Virus record (IMG/VR): IMGVR_UViG_3300017971_000579
Coordinates: 1 to 33,619 of that record
DNA from: a virus
Taxonomy: Duplodnaviria; Caudoviricetes
Direction: 5' to 3' (one strand)
DNA length: 33,619 nucleotides
A program made the position numbers and the translations under genes. Position 1 is the first letter of the stretch; every line of letters starts with the position of its first letter. Of the stretch, positions 1 to 33,619 are shown piece after piece. The notes beneath the pieces are model-generated. The model was not told the origin of the DNA. It saw nothing but the letters and a program-made list of their open reading frames with translations, and searched no databases.

Positions 1-38
1 ACTTACGTGGAGTGTGGCCGTCAAATACCGGAAGGGCT

Positions 39-764
39 ATGAGCAAGGTAAGCATATTCACTGCGGCTGTAGGCGATTATCCTCATGCCAGAAACTATGT
101 GAGAAATCTATTTCATGGATTCGTAAGTGGTCTTGGATGTGATTTCACGATGTACGTCGTAACCGACTTGGAAGAGGTTGCCCACGATGATTATTATCTG
201 AACATCGTACCTTTAGGGGAAAAGAAAATTGTTCCGGTATATCCTGATCGTCGTGTCTGGGGTTGGTGGAATCTCATGGAGTTGTACCGTCCTGACGCTC
301 CTTGGTCAGATGGTCACGTCATCATGACAGGATTGGATACGGTGATTCGCGGGGATGTCAGCTGGTTAATCCAGCCATGGCCGATGTATATGAGGCCAGT
401 CAGGGAATCTCTGGGCCTCAAGGGTGCTTACGATGGAAGCTACGCTGATGGGGCTGTCTGTCTTCCTCCAGATTTGCACTATAATGAAGTATGGAAGGGA
501 TACTGCGAAGGTGTCAGTGAGGAATTAACGTGGAAGCAGAAGCGTTCATTTCCTATGCATGTTTACGTGACTCAAGCGATTAAGAGCATGTATCAGAATC
601 AACCGTATTTCTGGCAAGACAGGTTCCCTGGTAAGCTTTGCAGTTACAAGGAGCCTGAGCCGAAAATTGATGAGCCTGAGGAGCCTTTGGTGATATTCCA
701 CGGTAAACCTAGACCTCATGAGGCAATTGAGCAAAGTCCGTGGATAGGGAAGTATTTTAGATGA
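39..764 (+). CDS. Phage glycosyltransferase-like protein (GT-A fold, nucleotide-diphospho-sugar transferase type)
   Basis: Motifs WGWWNLMELY, DxD-like GLDTVIRGD, CSYK and C-terminal VIFHGKPRPHE resemble a common phage GT family. ATG at 39 after GAAGGG is preferred to GTG at 12. Confidence 0.7.
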   Translation: MSKVSIFTAAVGDYPHARNYVRNLFHGFVSGLGCDFTMYVVTDLEEVAHDDYYLNIVPLGEKKIVPVYPDRRVWGWWNLMELYRPDAPWSDGHVIMTGLDTVIRGDVSWLIQPWPMYMRPVRESLGLKGAYDGSYADGAVCLPPDLHYNEVWKGYCEGVSEELTWKQKRSFPMHVYVTQAIKSMYQNQPYFWQDRFPGKLCSYKEPEPKIDEPEEPLVIFHGKPRPHEAIEQSPWIGKYFR

Positions 765-1453: not shown

Positions 1454-1482
1454 TTGACACCTAGACGGGATGATTCCATAAC
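1454..1482 (+). promoter_or_regulatory. Putative sigma70-type promoter for the tRNA-like gene
   Basis: Perfect TTGACA at 1454-1459, 17-nt spacer, weak -10 CATAAC, about 15 nt upstream of the tRNA 5' end. Confidence 0.45.
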
Positions 1483-1497
1483 TGAATCCAGTTTTTT

Positions 1498-1570
1498 AGA
1501 AGGTAGGTCCGGTGACCCGCTGGGGCTCATATCCCTGGTTAGATCAGTTCAACCCTGATACCTTCTCCCA
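1498..1570 (+). tRNA. Non-canonical tRNA with CAU anticodon (Met/fMet/Ile2 identity unresolved)
   Basis: Acceptor stem AGAAGGT/ACCTTCT (7 bp perfect); D-stem GGTC/GACC with CGGT loop; anticodon loop CTCATAT closed by GGG/CCC; T-arm ATCAG-TTCAACC-CTGAT; C73 and encoded CCA. Confidence 0.8.
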
Positions 1571-1603
1571 CTTTTCATATTATTATGAATTCAGCGACGT
1601 AAG

Positions 1604-1640
1604 GGCCTCCTCGTTCCAGACAAGCGGGGAGGCTTTTTTA
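1604..1640 (+). terminator. Rho-independent terminator downstream of the tRNA
   Basis: GGCCTCCTCGTT pairs with AGCGGGGAGGCT and is followed by a T-run. Confidence 0.8.
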
Positions 1641-1679
1641 TTTGCCTATAACAGTCGATTCTTCCATAGAATCATAGTT

Positions 1680-19354: not shown

Positions 19355-20824
19355 ATGGCAGCTGGTGATATTCCAATTCGTAATATGCCTGGAGTCAGCA
19401 GGACTGAGGGAACTCCTTTGATCGGTACTGCTGGTATTGCTCAGGTGGGACAGGCTCAGCAACGGCTGGCTGGTGCTATCGGTCAGGCTGGAGATGCTGC
19501 GATGGCATTTGCCCAGAAGCGTCAGCGCACAAATGATGTGGCGGCTGAATCTGATGAACAGCTGGGAATTACTGCTACGAATGAGAAGATCGATGTAAAT
19601 CTACAATCTGAAGAGTACCGGAACGATCATGAAAAGTGGGTCGATATGGGTACTGATTTGTGGGATCAGCGTTCTCAGGCAATGGAGGAAAATCTGACGA
19701 AGTACGGTGTCTCTGACGAGGCTGCTGAAACGATTCGTACCAGATATAGCGTTTCTCGTGAAAAGTCTCTTGGTCGTCTTACTGAGCAGGCTCTTGCCCG
19801 TGATTGGGAGTTGAAGATGACCACTATCACGATGTCAGCTCAGGATTATTACAGGAATGAAATGTGGGATGCGGGTGATCGAAAGATTGATTCCATCGGA
19901 TTGCCTGAACCTGAGGCGGAAGCACTGAAATTTAAGCTCAAGCATGAGGCTGACTATCAAATGGCTGAGCAGGAGCTTCGTTCAATGGTCACTCCTGACG
20001 ATTACAAGGCCTTCATGGACATGCTGATGGTCAAGGAGGGCGAAGGCGACGAATCAAAGTTTGTAAATTACAAGGGACTTCAGCCAGACTCCAGGAGAAC
20101 GCTTTTAGGATATGCTGATGCTCGTATGCGTACAGCATTACGGGACCAGGCCAGTACGCTCAGGACATTCAATAAGGCTCTTGCCAGCGGAAATGCGACT
20201 GATGATGACATCAAGGTAGCTGCTGCGAAGGGTACTGATCCATTCGTTGTAGAGCAGATGCAGCGGGCAATGGAGGCCAAAACTGTCTACGAGGAGAATA
20301 CCACTGAATACCAGAAGCTTGCTGATGAAATGACGCTCAGCTGGTATCACAAGGGATTCGGAATGGATTGGGTTCCTGCGGCTTTGAAAAAGGACATCCC
20401 TGAGGAGGCGTACAACAAGCAGCTGAAGAAGATTGCAGATAGCGACTTTACTCCAGCCTCGAAGCGTAAGCTGGTGGACCTATGGCTGGATTGGCGTTAC
20501 CAGGATGCCGTTGAAGATGGTCAGCTGATGCTGGCCGGCTTCGATGAGAAGGTGAACTTGGATGATGCTGACAAGCGCAAGGTTACTGACATGTTCGACA
20601 TGTACAAGGAAGCTAATGGCTACGGCGATTGGGCTCCTGAGGCGATTTCGGGTATTGCCAATGAGCAGCTGCGTGATCTTTTCATGTGGATCCACAATAC
20701 GAAGGACATCACTGAGGATATGTGGAGCCTGAAGCTCAATGACTACCGTTCTCAAATTTTCGGTAAAATTGCTGATGAACAGGCTTCTCAGGAGGCCGCA
20801 ACTGGTGATATGTTCGGATTCTGA
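19355..20824 (+). CDS. Internal virion/ejection protein (T7 gp15-like position)
   Basis: G/A/Q-rich N-terminus, then all-helical; lies between the small and large ejection proteins. Confidence 0.65.
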   Translation: MAAGDIPIRNMPGVSRTEGTPLIGTAGIAQVGQAQQRLAGAIGQAGDAAMAFAQKRQRTNDVAAESDEQLGITATNEKIDVNLQSEEYRNDHEKWVDMGTDLWDQRSQAMEENLTKYGVSDEAAETIRTRYSVSREKSLGRLTEQALARDWELKMTTITMSAQDYYRNEMWDAGDRKIDSIGLPEPEAEALKFKLKHEADYQMAEQELRSMVTPDDYKAFMDMLMVKEGEGDESKFVNYKGLQPDSRRTLLGYADARMRTALRDQASTLRTFNKALASGNATDDDIKVAAAKGTDPFVVEQMQRAMEAKTVYEENTTEYQKLADEMTLSWYHKGFGMDWVPAALKKDIPEEAYNKQLKKIADSDFTPASKRKLVDLWLDWRYQDAVEDGQLMLAGFDEKVNLDDADKRKVTDMFDMYKEANGYGDWAPEAISGIANEQLRDLFMWIHNTKDITEDMWSLKLNDYRSQIFGKIADEQASQEAATGDMFGF

Positions 20825-23800
20825 TGGATGCCAATGCTAAATACTTCAAGGATGGATTAGAAAGTGGACTCTCAGCTATTCCTGAGGATTCGCGCAATAC
20901 GCTATTGATGGCTGCTGATGCCTCTGGTGATAGGAACGATTACCTGTATAAGCGATTCAACTCGAATTATATTGCTCATAAGTTTGGCAAGGACAGGGAA
21001 GCAGTCTTCAAGGACTATGATACCTATTCCAAAACCTATCTTCCTGGAGCTGGTGACAATGCGGCCGCTCATTATGGCGCAATTCAGGCGTACTATCGTG
21101 AGCATGACGGCAAGGTGGTGCGTCCACAGGTTCGGGTAGAGAATGAGGTGGAGCAGGAAAAGGCACGAATCAGAGAGCTTCCTGGTGCTATGCTGGCCGG
21201 TGGTGCTCGTTCACTCCTGATGAAATCCGGTGGTACTGCTCAGATTGTGGCCGATGTACAGGTTCCTCTTCAATATGATGATCCTGAATTACCGGAAATC
21301 TTCGATAAAATTCGCGCAATCGATCCGGTAGCATTTGCCAATTACAACATTGGAATGCTCCAGCGTGGCCATGTTCCATCAGGAATGCAGATGCTTCGAC
21401 CTGAGCAACGTGCTGAAGCTGAGGAACTGATGAAGCGTGGTCGTCAAATTGGGATGCGTGCTCAGCAACGTCGTCGGGAAGTGGCGGCTGAACTGCCGGC
21501 TACTGACTTGGCTGATACATTTCGCAAGTCTGCTGGAAAAATCCATAAGGTATATGGTGTATCTGATGCGACTGCTAATAGTTTCTGGGGTCAGATAGCC
21601 ATGGGTATAGGCCAGTTGGCTCCTAATGCGCTTGCTACACTGGCTGGTCCTGCTGGATGGGGAACGATTTTTACTGAGGCCTATGAGGAGGCATATTCTG
21701 ATTACGTTGGTACACTTGAGGAAGGCGAGCTGGCTGATCCAGGTGAGGCATTTAGATATGCAGCGAGCTATGGAACGGTCAGTACTGCACTGGAAAAGAC
21801 TGGTATAGATACTATCCTAAAGAACGTCTTCAAAGAAGGTAAGGACCTGACGCTGAGAGAAGTATCAAAGCGGATTGCTGCTGGTGGATTCGGTGAAGGT
21901 GTTACTGAGGCATCCCAGGGACAGGCTATGGATATGCTGGCCAGAATGACCGGTGTGGATCCTGAGCGTGATTTGTGGTCAATGGATGTCCTTCGTAAGC
22001 GAATGGTAGAATTTGGCGTGGGGATGTTCACTGGACAGGCGGTGACTGCTGTTGGGGTTGGTACTGGTGCAGCTGTAGAAAGCTCCCGCGGGAAGCAGTA
22101 TATTTCAAACCGTCTTGGACAACCACTGAGTAAGGAAGACTTTGCACTGCTGAGAAAGCATAAGACTGACGATCAAATTCGTGAGGCCTTGGCGGATCCG
22201 GCCACGGGAGACATCCTGGTGAAGGCTGCGAATGGGGATGTCGATGCTCAGAAAATGTACAATGCTCAGGCGTTGGTCGATTCCGATATGTTTGTGCCGA
22301 CTATAAATGTCGGGAATACTCAGTTTGGGGAAGTGAACGGAAACCCCGTGATGGTGAATCCTGACATTGGAGCGATTCCACTGGATATGACCAATCCTGA
22401 ACATGCAGCTATTTTCCAGCGTGCTCAGCAACTCCAGGAAGAAAAGGAGCTTGTCCGGACGGATGTGGATGAGGTGCAGGCTCGTGCTGCTTACAATGAT
22501 TTCTATGGTGCTCAGGCTCAGCGTATCATGGTGATGCCAGAAACCGGTGAAAAGATGGCGACTGAAGCGATACCTGAGCCTAGCATAGCAGAACGCGAAG
22601 GCCAGTATGTTGTATTTGGACCAGGCGAAGAGGAGATTGCTCGTGCTGACACCATGCAGGAGGCTCGTGAAGCTGCCATGGATTTCAAAGTGCAGGAATC
22701 TCAGAAGCTCGGTCAGGACCTCCAGGACTTTCTTGATTACTTTGAATTCATATCCGGTATCGAGGCTGATGTGGATGTGGAGGCTCCTATGTCCTATCGT
22801 CGGCTTATCGATGAAGGTAAGATGAGCGAGGCGGCTGCTCGTGAGTGGATCAGCAAAACCACGAATTTTAATACCACTGATGAAATCGAGTGGGCTCTGG
22901 AAAACAGCATTGTCCTGGGAAGCTCAATCAGCGGGTTCAAGCGTAGAGCTTGGCAGGATGCGATAAAAATCTACAAGGGGGCCAGCTACTTCACAGTCAT
23001 AGAGGAGTATTCTGAGGCGTACCTGAAGGCTGCTATTGAGCGCGATGGTGATCTGACATGGGAGGACCTTCAAACCTGGAAGCTCGACTATGAGCGAAAG
23101 ACTGGCCGGATTGAGTACGGAAATGACAATGCTGGCTTAACAGAATGGTTTTCAAATAGATCGATCGATTACGTGACCGGTCGGCTGAATCAGGATGAGG
23201 CGGCTGAAATTCCATCTGGTTTCAAGCGGTTCCTGGTACAGTTTCAGGCGTACATGAAGCATATTATGGCTCGTGCTACTCAGCTGATGCAGCTGCGTCA
23301 GGCTGGACAACTCGATGCTGCGTTAGAGCGTCACCTGGAGCGGGCAACCGGTCTGGATGCTCAGTATGTTGAAATGAGGTTGAAGGCACTGGAGGAGCAA
23401 GAGGCTGGTCCTGATCCTACAATGGAGTTGACTCAGGTGATTCGTCGCATGGGTGGCATTGTCAGTCCTTCTCGTGCTGAGGCAATGGTGGCCGGTCGTG
23501 AGGGTACTGAATTTGCTGGTGAGCTGCGGGAAGTCTGGGAAGAATATGGTCGTGGTCGTGGTCTGGCGATATTCCGCAAGCAGGGTGATACGCTCGATCA
23601 GATGTTACTCAGGTTGCGAGATGAAGGTTTTACCTTTGATACTCCATCAGATTTGATTGAGGCAATGAAACGCTCAGCCAGGGGCGATGCTATCTATCCG
23701 GATTATGCTGGGGTGGCTGAGGATTTGGATACATTCCAGGCGGTTCCTAAGATTGATGAGAAAGGTCAGCCTGCTCCGAATCAAACTTTCATGACTGCTT

Positions 23801-26800
23801 GGCATGGTAGTCCTCACAAGTTCGATTCCTTTGATCTTCAGAAGATTGGGACTGGTGAAGGTGCTCAGGCCTATGGGTGGGGATTGTATTTTGCTGAAGG
23901 TCGTGGGGTTGCTGAATGGTATAAAAATCAATTATCACGTCCAGATACTACCGCATTTATGCGTGAGCTGCTTCTAACAAAAGGAAGGAAGGTAGCGTCA
24001 GAAATCTCATGGAGACTCAGTCAGGGAGAAAGTTTGCAAAGCATAAAGGATTCCATTGAGGGAAGCCTTGAACAGGCTAAAAGATGGAAATCTGAAGGAA
24101 CTAACACTGAAAGCAATCAGGCTTTTATTGATGGAGCTGAAATTGCTCTCAAGCATTTGGATTTAATTGAGGAGCAAACTGGATCAGTCTATCAGGTGAA
24201 TTTAGCTGCTGACGAAGATGAATATCTGTTGTGGGATGAATCACTTAGCGAACAAAGTGAGAAAATTAAAAATGCTTTTGAGCAGCTATTGAAAACGGAA
24301 GCCGCTAAAAAAGCTGATGATTCACTTTACGGAAGTGTGCTTGAGAGAAAAGGACAGTTCGTAGATCCTATAGGTAAGGATATTTATGCAATAGCCTATG
24401 AAGCCCAGACACCCAAGGAAGCTTCTCTTTTGTTACATTCTCTAGGCATCCGTGGAATCAAGTATCTAGATGCTACCTCCAGGGGGTTTTATGTAAGAAC
24501 TTTTGTGAATGGAGAACTCTATTCAGAGACTCGATGGGATACAAGAAATCAGGCTGAACAACATGCAAGGCTGAAACGCGAAGAAGGTTTTGAAACAAAG
24601 ATAGAACGTAAAGGCAACTACAACTATGTCATATTCGATCATCATGATGTGACGATTGAAGAAACCTTTCAGGCGGTGACCAATACTGAGGCCTTCAAGA
24701 ATTGGTTTAAGGAATCGAAGGTTGTCGATGATGATGGTGATCCTCTGGTTGTTTATCACGGTACTCGTGATATGGAATTTGAGGTTTTTGACTATGCCAA
24801 AATCGGGCAGCAAGGCAGGTCCGAAGGACAGGGGTTTTACTTCACTAGCGATCCAGATGTTGCAGCTGGTTACGGTTACAGGGGTCGGGTTATTCAAGCA
24901 TACCTGAGTATTCAAAAACCGATGGAGCTTAACCAGAAAGGATTTGATGAGGATACTCTTAGGGACATCTTGTGGAGGATTGCTGAATTAGAACATGAAT
25001 ATGATCCTGAAATATCAATAGATGATGGGTATCTATCCAATTTTGGAGGTCTTGAGGGTGCTGTAGAACTTGTATCTCAGGACGAAGAGGCTCTTGAACA
25101 GCTTGGCGGTGTAGTCGGTGCTGGAGTAGATCCGGAGTTTGTTAATAAGGCTGTTACTGAAGTTACAGGGTATGATGGCGTGCATGTACCTGGTGGATTT
25201 GGTAACCGTGGAGGTCGTGGCGGTGAAATATGGGTCGCATTTGATCCTTCACAGATAAAAAGTGTGGATGCAACTGCCTTCGATCCAAATGATTTACGTA
25301 TTACCTTTCAGGACACTTTCCCTCGAAATTCCCGTGTAACTGCATCTGAGCAGACCGGAATTCCTAACAAGCAGCTGTACGAAACTGACCACGATTGGGA
25401 TAATTATTCTGATCTGGAGCATGACATGATGGAAGTGGCTAGGGATGAGAAGAGTAAGATTCTGGGTAAGCCGGTGCAGCTGACACGTCAACAAGCCGCT
25501 AGAACTTATCGGGCTGAGGATTCAGGTTTTCGTCAGGCCATATCGAATATCATTTCTCCAATAGCCTCAAAGCTGCGTAGGATCAATCTCGCGCTGTCCC
25601 AGCGACTCAGGGCTCATGATGGTGTGGTAATGCGCCGTAAGAGCGAATACAGGCGTTTGGCTCTGCCATGGGTGAAGAAGATGGAGAAGCTTCCTGATAG
25701 CGTCCAGGATGAGCTAATAATTGCTTTGAGGGATGATCCTGCTGAGGCTCAGCGAATCATGAAATCCTATCGCATGTGGGAAGATTTCCAAGTTATTAAG
25801 AAGGTCCTAGATAGCCTGTACAAGGCTCAGCGCGATATGGGTGATGAGTTGGGATACCTGGAGGATTATTTTCCGTTCCGCGTGAAGGACTATAAGGGCC
25901 TCTATACAGAAATGTATGGCGAGGATGCTGAGGAAGCAACAAAGCTGGAAACGGTGATCGCTGAAGCTCGTGCGAAGGCACACGCGAAAGGTCAGGAGCT
26001 TGATGAGCATGAACGTGAAAGAATAATTTCCGTATATCTTAGGGGTTATACGAAAGGTTTGGGGGCAAAACCTGGATTCCAAAAGGAGCGTACCATGATG
26101 CAACTGGAGTCCAGGTTCCTCCCTTACTATGCAAGTCCATCTGAAGCACTGTTTTCCTACATTGATCGTGCGGTAGATCGTATCGAGGCGAAGAAATTCT
26201 TTGGTCCTCATGCGGTGATTGACAATGAGCTGAAGGTGAACGCTGCCGGCGAGGATGTTGTGATGTCCAGGCTGAACGAAATGGAGAGCGTTTCAGCCAT
26301 GGTGAATGATCTGATTGCGAAGGGCCAGATTGCTCCTCGTGATGTGGATAGGGTAAAGCAGCTGCTTACCGGCCGATTCCGATACCAGTCAGCTCCTAAG
26401 TGGGTCCAGCGTGCGAAGGCACTGACGTATCTTTCATTACTTAATGATGTTTCCGCCACGATCACTCAGGTCGGAGATATTGCTTGGGCTTTGTATCTGG
26501 ATCCGATTGGAGTGCTTCCTTCTTTGGCGCGGGCAACAGTGGGACGCTCGAAGATTGCGGTAGAGGACCTTGGGATAGAGCGAATCGGTCAGGAATTCGA
26601 GAATCCTGGAAAGCTGTACAAGAATCTCGATAGGATGTTTCGATATATCGGTTTCTCCTACATGGACCGCATCGGCAAGGAGACTCTGATAAACACGGGA
26701 ATTAATAAGCTTCGTAAGCGTGCATCGAAAGGAAAGCTACGAGGAAAGGACAAGGAGATTTTGGTAGCAACATTTGGCGATAAGGCGAGCCAGGTAGAGA

Positions 26801-27429
26801 AAGACCTTGCTGCCGGTAACGTCACTCCAGACGTGCAGCTGATGGCCTTCCTGATCCTTTCAGACTTCCAGCCTATATCTGTATCTGAAATGCCTGAATT
26901 CTATGCCAGGAGCGGTACAGGGCGACTTTATTACACGCTCAAGACATTCACGTTGAAGCAGCTGGATGTTTTTCGTCGTGAGACAATCGATGAATTTGCG
27001 AAGGGCAACTATAAGGATGGGGTGAAGAATCTTATCATGTTGTCCATGGCCTTCTATATGGCGAATGTTCCGGTCGACTGGTTCAAGGACTGGATGTATG
27101 GCCGGCGTACCGATCTTGATGATGTGGCAATTGATAATCTTTGGAAACTGTCTGGATTCAGCCGGTACTATGTTTATTACATGCGCGAGGAGGGTCCTGT
27201 GGACTTGTTCTATGGTCGTATCCTTGCTCCTGCTATGCCATGGATTGAGAATCCTTTCAGCGACATGAAGATGGCCTATGACAAGTTCACAAAGGGCGAA
27301 GACATGCAATGGGAAGATTTTGAGTCCGTCCGGATGATTCCCGGTATTGGGAAAATGCTTTACTGGTGGACTGGAAAAGGTAAGGTGAAAACTGAAAGAC
27401 GCTTAGAGCGTGAAGAAAATGAGGACTGA
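20824..27429 (+). CDS. Large internal virion/ejection polyvalent protein with two ADP-ribosyltransferase-like domains
   Basis: 2201 aa; GEGVTEASQ ejection-protein motif; AWHGSPHKFDSFD...GTGEGAQAYGWGLYFAE; FKNWFKESKVVD..G.PLVVYHGT...GFYFT...GYDGV...VAFDPSQIKS (ART-PolyVal-like); helical C-terminal domain. Confidence 0.8.
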   Translation: MDANAKYFKDGLESGLSAIPEDSRNTLLMAADASGDRNDYLYKRFNSNYIAHKFGKDREAVFKDYDTYSKTYLPGAGDNAAAHYGAIQAYYREHDGKVVRPQVRVENEVEQEKARIRELPGAMLAGGARSLLMKSGGTAQIVADVQVPLQYDDPELPEIFDKIRAIDPVAFANYNIGMLQRGHVPSGMQMLRPEQRAEAEELMKRGRQIGMRAQQRRREVAAELPATDLADTFRKSAGKIHKVYGVSDATANSFWGQIAMGIGQLAPNALATLAGPAGWGTIFTEAYEEAYSDYVGTLEEGELADPGEAFRYAASYGTVSTALEKTGIDTILKNVFKEGKDLTLREVSKRIAAGGFGEGVTEASQGQAMDMLARMTGVDPERDLWSMDVLRKRMVEFGVGMFTGQAVTAVGVGTGAAVESSRGKQYISNRLGQPLSKEDFALLRKHKTDDQIREALADPATGDILVKAANGDVDAQKMYNAQALVDSDMFVPTINVGNTQFGEVNGNPVMVNPDIGAIPLDMTNPEHAAIFQRAQQLQEEKELVRTDVDEVQARAAYNDFYGAQAQRIMVMPETGEKMATEAIPEPSIAEREGQYVVFGPGEEEIARADTMQEAREAAMDFKVQESQKLGQDLQDFLDYFEFISGIEADVDVEAPMSYRRLIDEGKMSEAAAREWISKTTNFNTTDEIEWALENSIVLGSSISGFKRRAWQDAIKIYKGASYFTVIEEYSEAYLKAAIERDGDLTWEDLQTWKLDYERKTGRIEYGNDNAGLTEWFSNRSIDYVTGRLNQDEAAEIPSGFKRFLVQFQAYMKHIMARATQLMQLRQAGQLDAALERHLERATGLDAQYVEMRLKALEEQEAGPDPTMELTQVIRRMGGIVSPSRAEAMVAGREGTEFAGELREVWEEYGRGRGLAIFRKQGDTLDQMLLRLRDEGFTFDTPSDLIEAMKRSARGDAIYPDYAGVAEDLDTFQAVPKIDEKGQPAPNQTFMTAWHGSPHKFDSFDLQKIGTGEGAQAYGWGLYFAEGRGVAEWYKNQLSRPDTTAFMRELLLTKGRKVASEISWRLSQGESLQSIKDSIEGSLEQAKRWKSEGTNTESNQAFIDGAEIALKHLDLIEEQTGSVYQVNLAADEDEYLLWDESLSEQSEKIKNAFEQLLKTEAAKKADDSLYGSVLERKGQFVDPIGKDIYAIAYEAQTPKEASLLLHSLGIRGIKYLDATSRGFYVRTFVNGELYSETRWDTRNQAEQHARLKREEGFETKIERKGNYNYVIFDHHDVTIEETFQAVTNTEAFKNWFKESKVVDDDGDPLVVYHGTRDMEFEVFDYAKIGQQGRSEGQGFYFTSDPDVAAGYGYRGRVIQAYLSIQKPMELNQKGFDEDTLRDILWRIAELEHEYDPEISIDDGYLSNFGGLEGAVELVSQDEEALEQLGGVVGAGVDPEFVNKAVTEVTGYDGVHVPGGFGNRGGRGGEIWVAFDPSQIKSVDATAFDPNDLRITFQDTFPRNSRVTASEQTGIPNKQLYETDHDWDNYSDLEHDMMEVARDEKSKILGKPVQLTRQQAARTYRAEDSGFRQAISNIISPIASKLRRINLALSQRLRAHDGVVMRRKSEYRRLALPWVKKMEKLPDSVQDELIIALRDDPAEAQRIMKSYRMWEDFQVIKKVLDSLYKAQRDMGDELGYLEDYFPFRVKDYKGLYTEMYGEDAEEATKLETVIAEARAKAHAKGQELDEHERERIISVYLRGYTKGLGAKPGFQKERTMMQLESRFLPYYASPSEALFSYIDRAVDRIEAKKFFGPHAVIDNELKVNAAGEDVVMSRLNEMESVSAMVNDLIAKGQIAPRDVDRVKQLLTGRFRYQSAPKWVQRAKALTYLSLLNDVSATITQVGDIAWALYLDPIGVLPSLARATVGRSKIAVEDLGIERIGQEFENPGKLYKNLDRMFRYIGFSYMDRIGKETLINTGINKLRKRASKGKLRGKDKEILVATFGDKASQVEKDLAAGNVTPDVQLMAFLILSDFQPISVSEMPEFYARSGTGRLYYTLKTFTLKQLDVFRRETIDEFAKGNYKDGVKNLIMLSMAFYMANVPVDWFKDWMYGRRTDLDDVAIDNLWKLSGFSRYYVYYMREEGPVDLFYGRILAPAMPWIENPFSDMKMAYDKFTKGEDMQWEDFESVRMIPGIGKMLYWWTGKGKVKTERRLEREENED

Positions 27430-33074: not shown

Positions 33075-33618
33075 CGTCCTGTCCTTTCTCGTCCATCATC
33101 TCAGCCATTCTTGACTCACAGAAATCAGCGGCGATTGTGCGGCTTGCTTTGTATTTCTCTTTGCCATCGGAAATGTACTTTCTGAGATCATCCAGTGTTC
33201 CGCTAAAGCAACCACAAAAATATCGGACCTCATCAGCAATCAGGACGGCTAACAGTTTTCTGCCACATTCGCCATGATCGCTCCATGAAACCTCCACACG
33301 CTTTATGCTTGTGACGTTTTGGAGATCGGCCCCACGGAAATTAGCCCCACGGAGCTTGGTCCAACAGAGATCGGCCCCACGGAGCTTGGTCCAACTGAGA
33401 TCGGCCTCTCTGAGATCGGCCTCTCTGAGATTGGCCTCACAGAAATCGGCCTCACTGAAATCGGCCCCACGGAGCTTGGCCCAACCGAGATCGGCTCCAC
33501 GAAGATCGGCCTCACGGAGATCGGCCTCACGGAGATCGGCCCAACCGAGATCGGCCCCACGGAGATCGTCCCAACGGAGATCGGCCCGTTTGCCACCTTG
33601 TCCATTTAGCCACTTCTT
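33067..33618 (-). CDS. Pentapeptide-repeat protein, 5' end outside the window
   Basis: The frame is open from the window edge (KKWLNGQGGKR-ADLRW-DDLRG-ADLGW-ADLRE...) through 18 A(D/N/K)Lxx-type units and continues in frame into the 33067-33297 ORF (CGCFSGTLDDL domain). Confidence 0.9.
   Translation of the reverse strand, partial: KKWLNGQGGKRADLRWDDLRGADLGWADLREADLREADLRGADLGWAKLRGADFSEADFCEANLREADLREADLSWTKLRGADLCWTKLRGANFRGADLQNVTSIKRVEVSWSDHGECGRKLLAVLIADEVRYFCGCFSGTLDDLRKYISDGKEKYKASRTIAADFCESRMAEMMDEKGQDDE
33069..33088. repeat. 20-bp direct repeat, copy 2
   Basis: Identical to 32723-32742. Confidence 0.85.
33316..33585 (-). repeat. 15-bp-period coding tandem repeat (18 pentapeptide units)
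   Basis: GCCGATCTCCGTGRG-like units on the minus strand. Confidence 0.9.
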
Positions 33619-33619
33619 A

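Follow-up and report, generated by a model that had tools for sequence, protein, structure and literature searches.

A compact initiator-type tRNA(CAU) with a rebuilt core in a marine phage and in unrelated viruses

A compact family of CAU tRNAs found in unrelated viruses is a conserved structural variant of initiator-type tRNA; a function in translation initiation is proposed for it here from its sequences. The member that forms the subject of this analysis lies in the window, by which is meant the whole stretch of 33,619 bases that was analysed, a viral record that is 61% complete. On balance, the window tRNA is likely to be a phage initiator of this family with a rebuilt core, which would fold into the usual L shape, receive methionine from the host synthetase and, in the course of infection, top up the pool of tRNA available for start codons. 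The compact geometry is known for mitochondrial tRNA-Ser(UCN) and tRNA-Pyl. The full-text literature searched, in the parts available and with most subscription papers, older work on T5 tRNAs among them, outside it, holds no initiator or phage case of this geometry and no description of a compact initiator-type phage tRNA family.

The virus of the window is a marine phage, with podovirus-like genes for terminase, head-tail connector, capsid and tail-tube proteins. The stretch is present in two metagenome runs, from sediment and seawater, which may be its source, and no RNA dataset is found among the listed runs that contain it. The nearest cultured capsid relatives belong to Pelagibacter podoviruses, at only 28-30% identity, which is too distant for host assignment. 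Terminase relatives come from two other viruses, in the examined stretches of which there is no tRNA, and an exact-pattern search for close homologues returned nothing but identical copies of the window's own virus. A plasmid search gave no record matching more than 80% of the query. The tRNA gene occupies the gap between the ORFs at 761-1447 and 1680-2105 and is, according to ARAGORN, the sole tRNA of the record. No integrase was found among the 32 plus-strand ORFs scanned in this 61%-complete record, and no pyl genes among the scanned window ORFs.

Some further features of the genome may be recorded. A glycosyltransferase is encoded upstream of the tRNA (window 12-764 and L002:413-1521); in an overlapping record it is preceded by ORFs that read by eye as sulfotransferase-like and hexapeptide-repeat acetyltransferase-like, a possible glycan-modification cluster. 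In the virion gene block, positions 20824-27429 encode a protein of 2201 amino acids, residues 1302-1484 of which form an ART-PolyVal ADP-ribosyltransferase domain. An open frame built from short repeated peptide units (33305-33619) closes the record.

Table 1. Features of the tRNA region (positions are those of the window)
Feature	Position	Strand	Basis or remark
TTGACA, possible -35 box	1454..1459	+	sequence; not listed by promoter scan
Compact tRNA-Met(CAU), encoded CCA	1498..1570	+	ARAGORN, fold, family model R1
Acceptor stem, 5' strand	1498..1504	+	7 bp with 1560-1566; A1-U72, G2-C71, A3-U70
Connector, single A, no U8	1505..1505	+	sequence
D arm: 4-bp stem, 4-nt loop C16 G18 G19 U20	1506..1517	+	sequence, covariation
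Anticodon arm: 7 pairs (3 G.U), CAT at 1528-1530, U38	1519..1539	+	fold, alignment
Variable loop, 3 nt	1540..1542	+	sequence, family counts
T arm: 5 bp; loop with TTC and C59 (predicted C16 partner)	1543..1559	+	alignment, covariation
Discriminator C73 and encoded CCA	1567..1570	+	sequence, family counts
Likely spurious 5' extension of ORF 1680-2105	1512..1679	+	crosses tRNA and terminator
Intrinsic-terminator-like hairpin, 15 pairs, T tail	1601..1637	+	terminator scan

ARAGORN calls the gene as tRNA-Met(cat), and its cloverleaf is the minimum-free-energy structure, with 23 of 23 pairs formed at -22.2 kcal/mol. A forced canonical fold, with a 2-nt connector, 3-bp D stem and 5-bp anticodon stem, was rejected, having only -14.7 kcal/mol against the -22.2 of the compact fold. 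Compared with shuffled sequences, the folding energy shows no excess over chance (z -0.61) and is uninformative as evidence; the fold is considered real because homologues of the same geometry carry two-sided changes. The window tRNA has a four-helix cloverleaf, a 7+5 acceptor/T helix, G18G19, TTC, a 7-nt anticodon loop and CCA, and is devoid of U8 and A14. The 73-nt fold of the original prediction therefore stands as written, in agreement with the sequence, the minimum-energy structure, the ARAGORN call and the same-geometry homologues, and so do its single-nucleotide connector (no U8) and 4-nt D loop (no A14), a geometry that the family shares. A high-scoring canonical cloverleaf alignment was sought as a refutation and is absent: the Rfam tRNA model RF00005 (29-bit cut-off) has no match to the window tRNA at E<=10, and U8 and A14 are missing. 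The family model R1, which includes the window in its training set, gives the window tRNA 79.1 bits, against 53-59 for the canonical initiators inspected.

The first match to a cultured phage obtained by BLAST was the tRNA-Met of Aeromonas phage MQM1, which has the same D arm as the window. Pattern scans covered viral, metagenome and genome contigs, and among at least 298 loops examined at least 24 distinct sequences passed a fixed-geometry filter; two of these, L085 and L241, are better read as long forms and were left out, giving a strict set of at least 22. Two members of 74 nt (L039 and L071) were left out of the alignment and tree, and L025, a near copy of L021, out of the test of bases 16 and 59 described below. 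The family geometry consists of a 1-nt A connector, a 4-bp D stem, a 4-nt NGGU loop, a 6(-7)-bp anticodon stem and a 3-nt variable loop. The earlier estimate of 3-4 nt for the variable loop agrees with the family, in which it has 3 nt in 20/22 members and 4 nt in 2/22. The connector is A in 22/22 strict members, as the scan patterns require, and also in 4/4 copies found by BLAST.

The 20 aligned 73-nt sequences share a mean pairwise identity of 64% and show two-sided changes at 18 of 23 pairs, in all four helices, a figure matched by 0 of 500 shuffles. Paired cells make up 93.9% of the alignment, compared with only 40-54% in slid structures; the 93.9% is inflated because the aligned set was pre-filtered for paired stems, and the spacing from GG to anticodon was fixed by the patterns. 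Unaided, RNAalifold recovered the same helices, leaving open 1:72 and the seventh anticodon pair. Two-sided changes affect 6/7 pairs of the acceptor stem and 4/4 of the D stem, in which 98.8% of cells are paired. The seventh pair of the anticodon stem is paired in 13/20 sequences with no two-sided change, and is A.C in 4/4 Bacillus/crAss copies. It is thus not a conserved Watson-Crick pair, and the family anticodon stem is best described as 6 bp plus one irregular layer. The proposed extension of this stem to 6-7 bp through G-U pairs holds for the seven pairs of the window and for the sixth pair, which covaries, but not for the seventh as a family trait.

As the 20-sequence set had been filtered for pairing, checks for selection bias were needed. 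When the letters of the D stem and acceptor were left free, a 1-nt connector appeared in 16 of 48 distinct matches (at least 48 being found), and in 12 of those the D stem was a perfect 4 bp closed by a 4-nt loop; by eye, the remaining four have a stem of 3 bp and a loop of 5 nt. Pattern-free BLAST revealed the exact geometry in herelleviruses of B. subtilis (BSP14, BSP36 and 035JT004) and in the crAss-like cr85_1. Records with at least 80% coverage of the BSP14 query number 21, duplicates counted, and four of them were checked base by base. A recent D-arm deletion in the window copy was considered and is ruled out by the at least 22 sequences of the same geometry, their two-sided changes and the BLAST-found copies; the refutation foreseen from homologues with normal D arms likewise failed. 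Covariation, which was to be sought among phage homologues, was found, and with it the view of a structurally divergent phage tRNA, of conserved compact geometry with compensatory changes, is upheld. Simple decay had been argued against from the start, and this agrees with the formation of all 23 pairs, the two-sided nature of the departures and the conservation of the geometry in the family.

It was originally proposed that the tRNA sits in its own transcription unit, flanked by TTGACA and a terminator. Both elements are present (Table 1), but neither exceeds chance by count: TTGACA followed by a gap and ATAA occurs once against 0.35 expected and was seen in 30/100 shuffles, and terminator-like sites in the region number 2 against 2.7 expected. 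No -10 box for this TTGACA passes the sigma-70 scan. A separate transcription unit for the window tRNA is plausible from the TTGACA and the hairpin, although support for the promoter is weak. At 1472-1488, just 5' of the tRNA and overlapping the putative -10 region, lies a small inverted repeat of 5 bp with a loop of 7 nt, and behind it a T run.

That annotation may miss or hide the gene was foreseen correctly. The Rfam tRNA model has no match, and the protein collection contains a 197-aa ORF from 1512 (P0001) that overlaps the tRNA; because this ORF runs through it, the tRNA gene can be hidden. A homologue search with the ORF-1512 protein returned nothing beyond the window's own protein. ARAGORN misses three strict family members, and standard tools under-call the compact tRNA family. 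Near-compact and long-form CAU tRNAs at L257:2998-3069 (phi38:1) and L260:492-567 (Pectobacterium phage My1) are absent from the GenBank annotation.

Judged by its conserved stems, the compact family is derived from an initiator tRNA. The window tRNA has the CAU anticodon with three G-C pairs (29-31:39-41) adjoining the anticodon loop, and each of these pairs is present in 19/20 aligned sequences, GGG being part of the scan patterns. In the aligned family G2-C71 is found in 18/20, C3-G70 in 18/20 and G4-C69 in 11/20, and 1:72 is unpaired in 13/20, whereas the window has a paired A1-U72. A38 is retained in 12/22 compact members and A73 in 15/22. C73 occurs in 6/22 compact members compared with 1/70 canonical viral initiators (p 6e-4), and U38 in 8/22 compared with 9/70 (p 0.02), near-copies being kept in both counts; an encoded CCA is present in 15/22 and 18/70, respectively. 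The three G-C pairs do not hold throughout, since U31.G39 is found in the Bacillus/crAss copies, with A29-U41 in two of them. In every Bacillus copy examined, U1-A72 is paired and the G-C run is weakened.

The initiator features listed in the original prediction survive in part. The CAU anticodon and the three G-C pairs stand, whereas A1-U72 is specific to the window and the R11-Y24 pair is probably not homologous. The second D-stem pair is purine-pyrimidine in 16/20, but the longer relatives suggest that the connector A is the old A11, in which case the pair cited as 11-24 would be another one. Similarly, C73, described as atypical for Met, is indeed rare in canonical viral initiators, but it is a trait of the window copy and not of the family.

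The determinants of the formyltransferase, according to the available part of PMC9976931, are the 1:72 mismatch, G2-C71, C3-G70, G4-C69 and A73; PMC11231383, also available in part, was a further source consulted for initiator features. Of these determinants the window copy has G2-C71 only, with A1-U72, A3-U70, A4-U69 and C73 at the other positions, and it is probably poorly formylated. For E. coli MetRS the CAU anticodon alone is sufficient, again according to the accessible text of PMC9976931. The initiator-type stems would argue against a tRNA-Ile2 (lysidine) identity. No second, canonical initiator was found in 21 records with a compact or near-compact copy, most of which are incomplete (four viral records are at least 90% complete, and two GenBank genomes are included); canonical initiators should have shown in these records, as they score 53-59 bits with R1. 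In L210, a separate elongator-type CAU tRNA is found beside the compact one.

Base 59 is a pyrimidine in 21/22 compact members, whereas 63/70 canonical viral initiators have A59. C16 is accompanied by C59 in 16/16 rows and U16 by U59 in 10/13, and base 16 is identical to base 59 in 26/29 rows with a pyrimidine at 16 (p 0.008 in the compact set, where the pattern had been spotted before being tested). The identity was repeated in a second set (12/13, p 0.005) and is unrelated to GC content; the Bacillus/crAss copies have U-U in 3/4 and U-C in 1/4. When 66 column pairs were scanned blind, 16:59 came second (p 0.005), which is not significant after correction, and base 16 is a purine in 6/22 compact members. 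The contacts C16:C59 and U16:U59 are those described for the tRNA-Sec elbow in the available part of PMC7609411, and the Y16:Y59 covariation suggests an elbow of the tRNA-Sec type.

Longer relatives of the compact form exist. L021 and L022 have N8, A9 and a 6-bp D stem with A11-U24, closed by the same 4-nt loop, whilst intermediate relatives (MQM1, L067 and Pectobacterium phage My1) have a 5-bp D stem and one to three connector bases; A11-U24 is found in the long or intermediate forms L021, L022, L260, L067 and L007. All forms have the same number of bases between G18G19 and the anticodon, a spacing which the patterns fixed but with which the BLAST-found copies agree; phi38:1 is an exception, being one base shorter. 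It is likely that an ancestor exchanged the U8-A14 and 15-48 tertiary layers for a 6-bp D stem and 4-nt loop, as in the long forms, and that the loss of nucleotides 8-10 then gave the compact form, A11 becoming the connector. By pairing with 44-45, the freed bases of the 3' D strand would extend the anticodon stem, which would in turn preserve the distance from elbow to anticodon. Compensation between helix layers is reportedly a rule for odd tRNAs, put forward by Steinberg and co-workers.

The carriers of the compact tRNA are unrelated viruses, with a GC content of 34-67% around the gene. None of the family loci tested shares a protein match with the window, and the Coraliomargarita contig L074 carries a different phage, again with no protein match to the window. 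A pattern scan of 185,579 cellular genomes gave two matches, in phage-like or tRNA-array DNA. One is on a contig that by eye appears to encode phage head and tail proteins; the other is in a 20-tRNA array (L075:4649-6622), likely mobile, on a Latescibacterota chromosome, and this genome has a canonical initiator elsewhere. The pattern recognises only 10/22 family members, so that cellular copies of other sequence are possible. Under strict filters, with four matches inspected, the 151 genomes of the phylum of G001 contain one compact copy (that of G001 itself) and one intermediate-looking form. A cellular origin was considered and rejected on these counts from the 151 genomes. A single origin of the compact form is compatible with the tree (p-AU 0.956), which is built on 54 columns and has no well-supported branch, and in which the window copy is the longest branch (0.87). 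Bacillus phage BSP12 (L283:155-201) retains an intact 5' portion of the compact tRNA, but has unrelated sequence in place of the T arm and acceptor 3' strand. This truncation implies that the gene is dispensable in some lineages.

Other unusual tRNAs were observed in phages during the scans. An unannotated UAU (Ile) tRNA of compact design, with a 1-nt A connector, 4-bp D stem, 4-nt loop and 6-bp anticodon stem, is present in Cellulophaga phage phi38:1 (L257:3723-3795) and in Calle_1 (L258:3841-3913). In phages or tRNA arrays, tRNA-Trp(CCA) genes that have a single connector nucleotide and a D loop of 4-5 nt occur at L007:1294-1367 (MQM1, where the gene is unannotated), L075:6022-6095, L238:5058-5130, L210:2896-2965 and L258:4517-4586. 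A strict scan for other anticodons gave one match, and the remaining examples were parsed by hand. In the wider group of CAU tRNAs, A54 replaces T54 of the T loop in L021, L025, L055, L060, L084 and L117; eukaryotic initiators have A54. A 70-nt CAU tRNA at L111:281-350 has a D arm that is smaller still, and ARAGORN finds 86-nt CAU tRNAs at L035:3951-4036 and L042:3951-4036, in which the D loop has 4 nt and the variable region is long. Phage tRNAs with a CUA (amber) anticodon are found at L023:1793-1876 and L035:691-765.

If the window tRNA is a phage initiator, host enzymes that destroy or block tRNA-fMet may act only poorly on it, owing to its altered D arm, N38 and N73, which is the least secure step of the proposal. 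Against this step, there is no single escape mutation, as A38 is kept in 12/22 members and A73 in 15/22. The window copy may serve start as well as internal AUG codons. A bolder idea, advanced tentatively and with more doubt than confidence, is that phages have evolved an architecture of their own, with a tRNA-Sec-type elbow and Ser(UCN)-type helices, which makes an initiator for bacterial ribosomes that is invisible to host immunity directed at tRNA, and that tRNA-Trp and tRNA-Ile have come to use this chassis too, as a natural, under-annotated and immune-proof scaffold. Rather unlikely, by comparison, is a working Met tRNA whose main use is in elongation, or which goes unformylated in both steps. 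In mitochondria a single tRNA-Met serves both initiation and elongation, and the paired A1-U72, A3-U70, A4-U69 and C73 of the window would suit such a role, as would the paired U1-A72 and weakened G-C run of the Bacillus copies; the 1:72 mismatch, G2-C71 and C3-G70 of most family members would not, and in L210 the elongator's place beside the compact tRNA appears to be taken. A decoy that takes no part in translation, and instead titrates a host nuclease, toxin or sensor directed at tRNA, is unlikely. It would explain why the gene is often the sole tRNA of its record (in the window and at several other loci), why an initiator-like anticodon arm and acceptor end flank a rebuilt core, and why the Rfam score as a tRNA is poor, but not the retention of CAU, G18G19, TTC, A58, the 7+5 acceptor/T helix and, in most members, an encoded CCA, nor the presence of the gene in full tRNA arrays (L075, L210 and L200) in which no other initiator was seen.

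It is quite improbable that the tRNA is functional but owes its compact core to neutral drift, with selection relaxed as it is in mitochondria, and plays no part in evading defence: a graded series of D-arm reduction does exist, the same design recurs in phage tRNA-Trp and tRNA-Ile, and the BSP12 copy is truncated, yet unrelated phage families retain the form, which is nearly absent from cellular genomes (2/185,579, by a pattern recognising 10/22 members), and C73 and U38 are enriched relative to canonical viral initiators. It is very improbable that the window copy is a decaying pseudogene or the remnant of an integration site in a family that is functional elsewhere. Its long branch, the loss of its formylation determinants and its weak promoter might be read in that way; against this, its 23 pairs all form, its departures are two-sided (A3-U70 in place of C3-G70, for example), the gene is complete, ending in CCA and followed by a terminator, and the plus-strand ORFs scanned include no integrase.

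Should the compact initiator be functional, U8, A14 and a canonical D loop would be dispensable for bacterial initiation, and phages would be able to counter tRNA-targeting immunity by rebuilding the core of a tRNA, beyond making point changes. The series from long to compact forms would represent a visible route for the evolution of such cores. As cultured B. subtilis phages have the same fold, the question of why phages carry tRNAs becomes directly testable.

That phage tRNAs act as nuclease-resistant variants is a general proposal, set out with the cleavage of tRNA-fMet by VapC in the available part of PMC10264068, and the T5 tRNA-Lys, active against PARIS, is a demonstrated nuclease-proof case (PMC11464382, in the part available). 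Both the T5 tRNA-Lys and the compact tRNA are phage-encoded variants of nuclease-targeted tRNAs. In the former, and in the cases of PMC10264068, as far as the accessible texts go, point changes lie near the anticodon; in the latter the whole core is rebuilt and resistance is proposed. Cas12a3 trims the 3' ends of tRNAs, with no discriminator rule given in the available part of PMC12851939, and the accessible portion of PMC12482277 shows no atypical tRNA.

Amongst tRNAs of unusual structure, comparison may be made with tRNA-Sec and the tRNA-Sec-like allo-tRNAs, as described in the available part of PMC7609411. The 4-nt D loop is common to both groups, and the 16:59 contact is here predicted from covariation. 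A 6-bp D stem is found only in the long relatives, the compact form having 4 bp, and the latter has neither the long variable arm nor the 12-13-bp acceptor domain (7+5 here). The Rfam tRNA-Sec model was the best match, below threshold, for 7/13 family members, and the model RF01852 has no match to the window tRNA.

The architecture had been likened originally to that of tRNA-Pyl. tRNA-Pyl reads the amber codon, and that of M. barkeri, D. hafniense and Methanomethylophilus alvus agrees with the compact form in having one connector nucleotide, a short D loop, a long anticodon stem and a small variable loop. In the window, however, the anticodon is CAU and not CUA, the connector is A, and G18G19 and TTC are kept, whereas both are missing from the tRNA-Pyl of Methanosarcina barkeri and Desulfitobacterium hafniense (PMC7609411, available part). 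Because G18G19 and TTC are retained, the likeness to tRNA-Pyl gives way to a closer one, with mitochondrial tRNA-Ser(UCN). The type I form of the latter in mammals has a 1-nt connector, a small D loop, a 6-bp anticodon stem, a 3-nt variable loop and G18G19 with TTC, according to the same partly available source, and the compact phage tRNA matches all of these features. It differs in its Met anticodon, its initiator identity, its viral origin in a tailed-phage context and, presumably, its use on bacterial ribosomes, and also in having one extra layer between the D and anticodon stems; the likeness appears to be convergent, not homologous. The compact tRNA belongs to none of the families compared, be it tRNA-Ser(UCN), tRNA-Pyl or tRNA-Sec.

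With bacterial tRNA-fMet (E. coli metZ/metY) it shares the CAU loop, the three G-C pairs and G2-C71, together with C3-G70 and the 1:72 mismatch as family-wide traits, and the two are of equal length 3' of the anticodon. The compact form is 3-4 nt shorter 5' of the anticodon and has no U8, A14 or G15; its anticodon stem is of 6-7 bp, its variable loop of 3 nt, and it has a pyrimidine at 59. The window copy deviates further by A1-U72, A3-U70 and C73. Although this copy misses several features of tRNA-fMet, the compact tRNA most likely works like a bacterial initiator.
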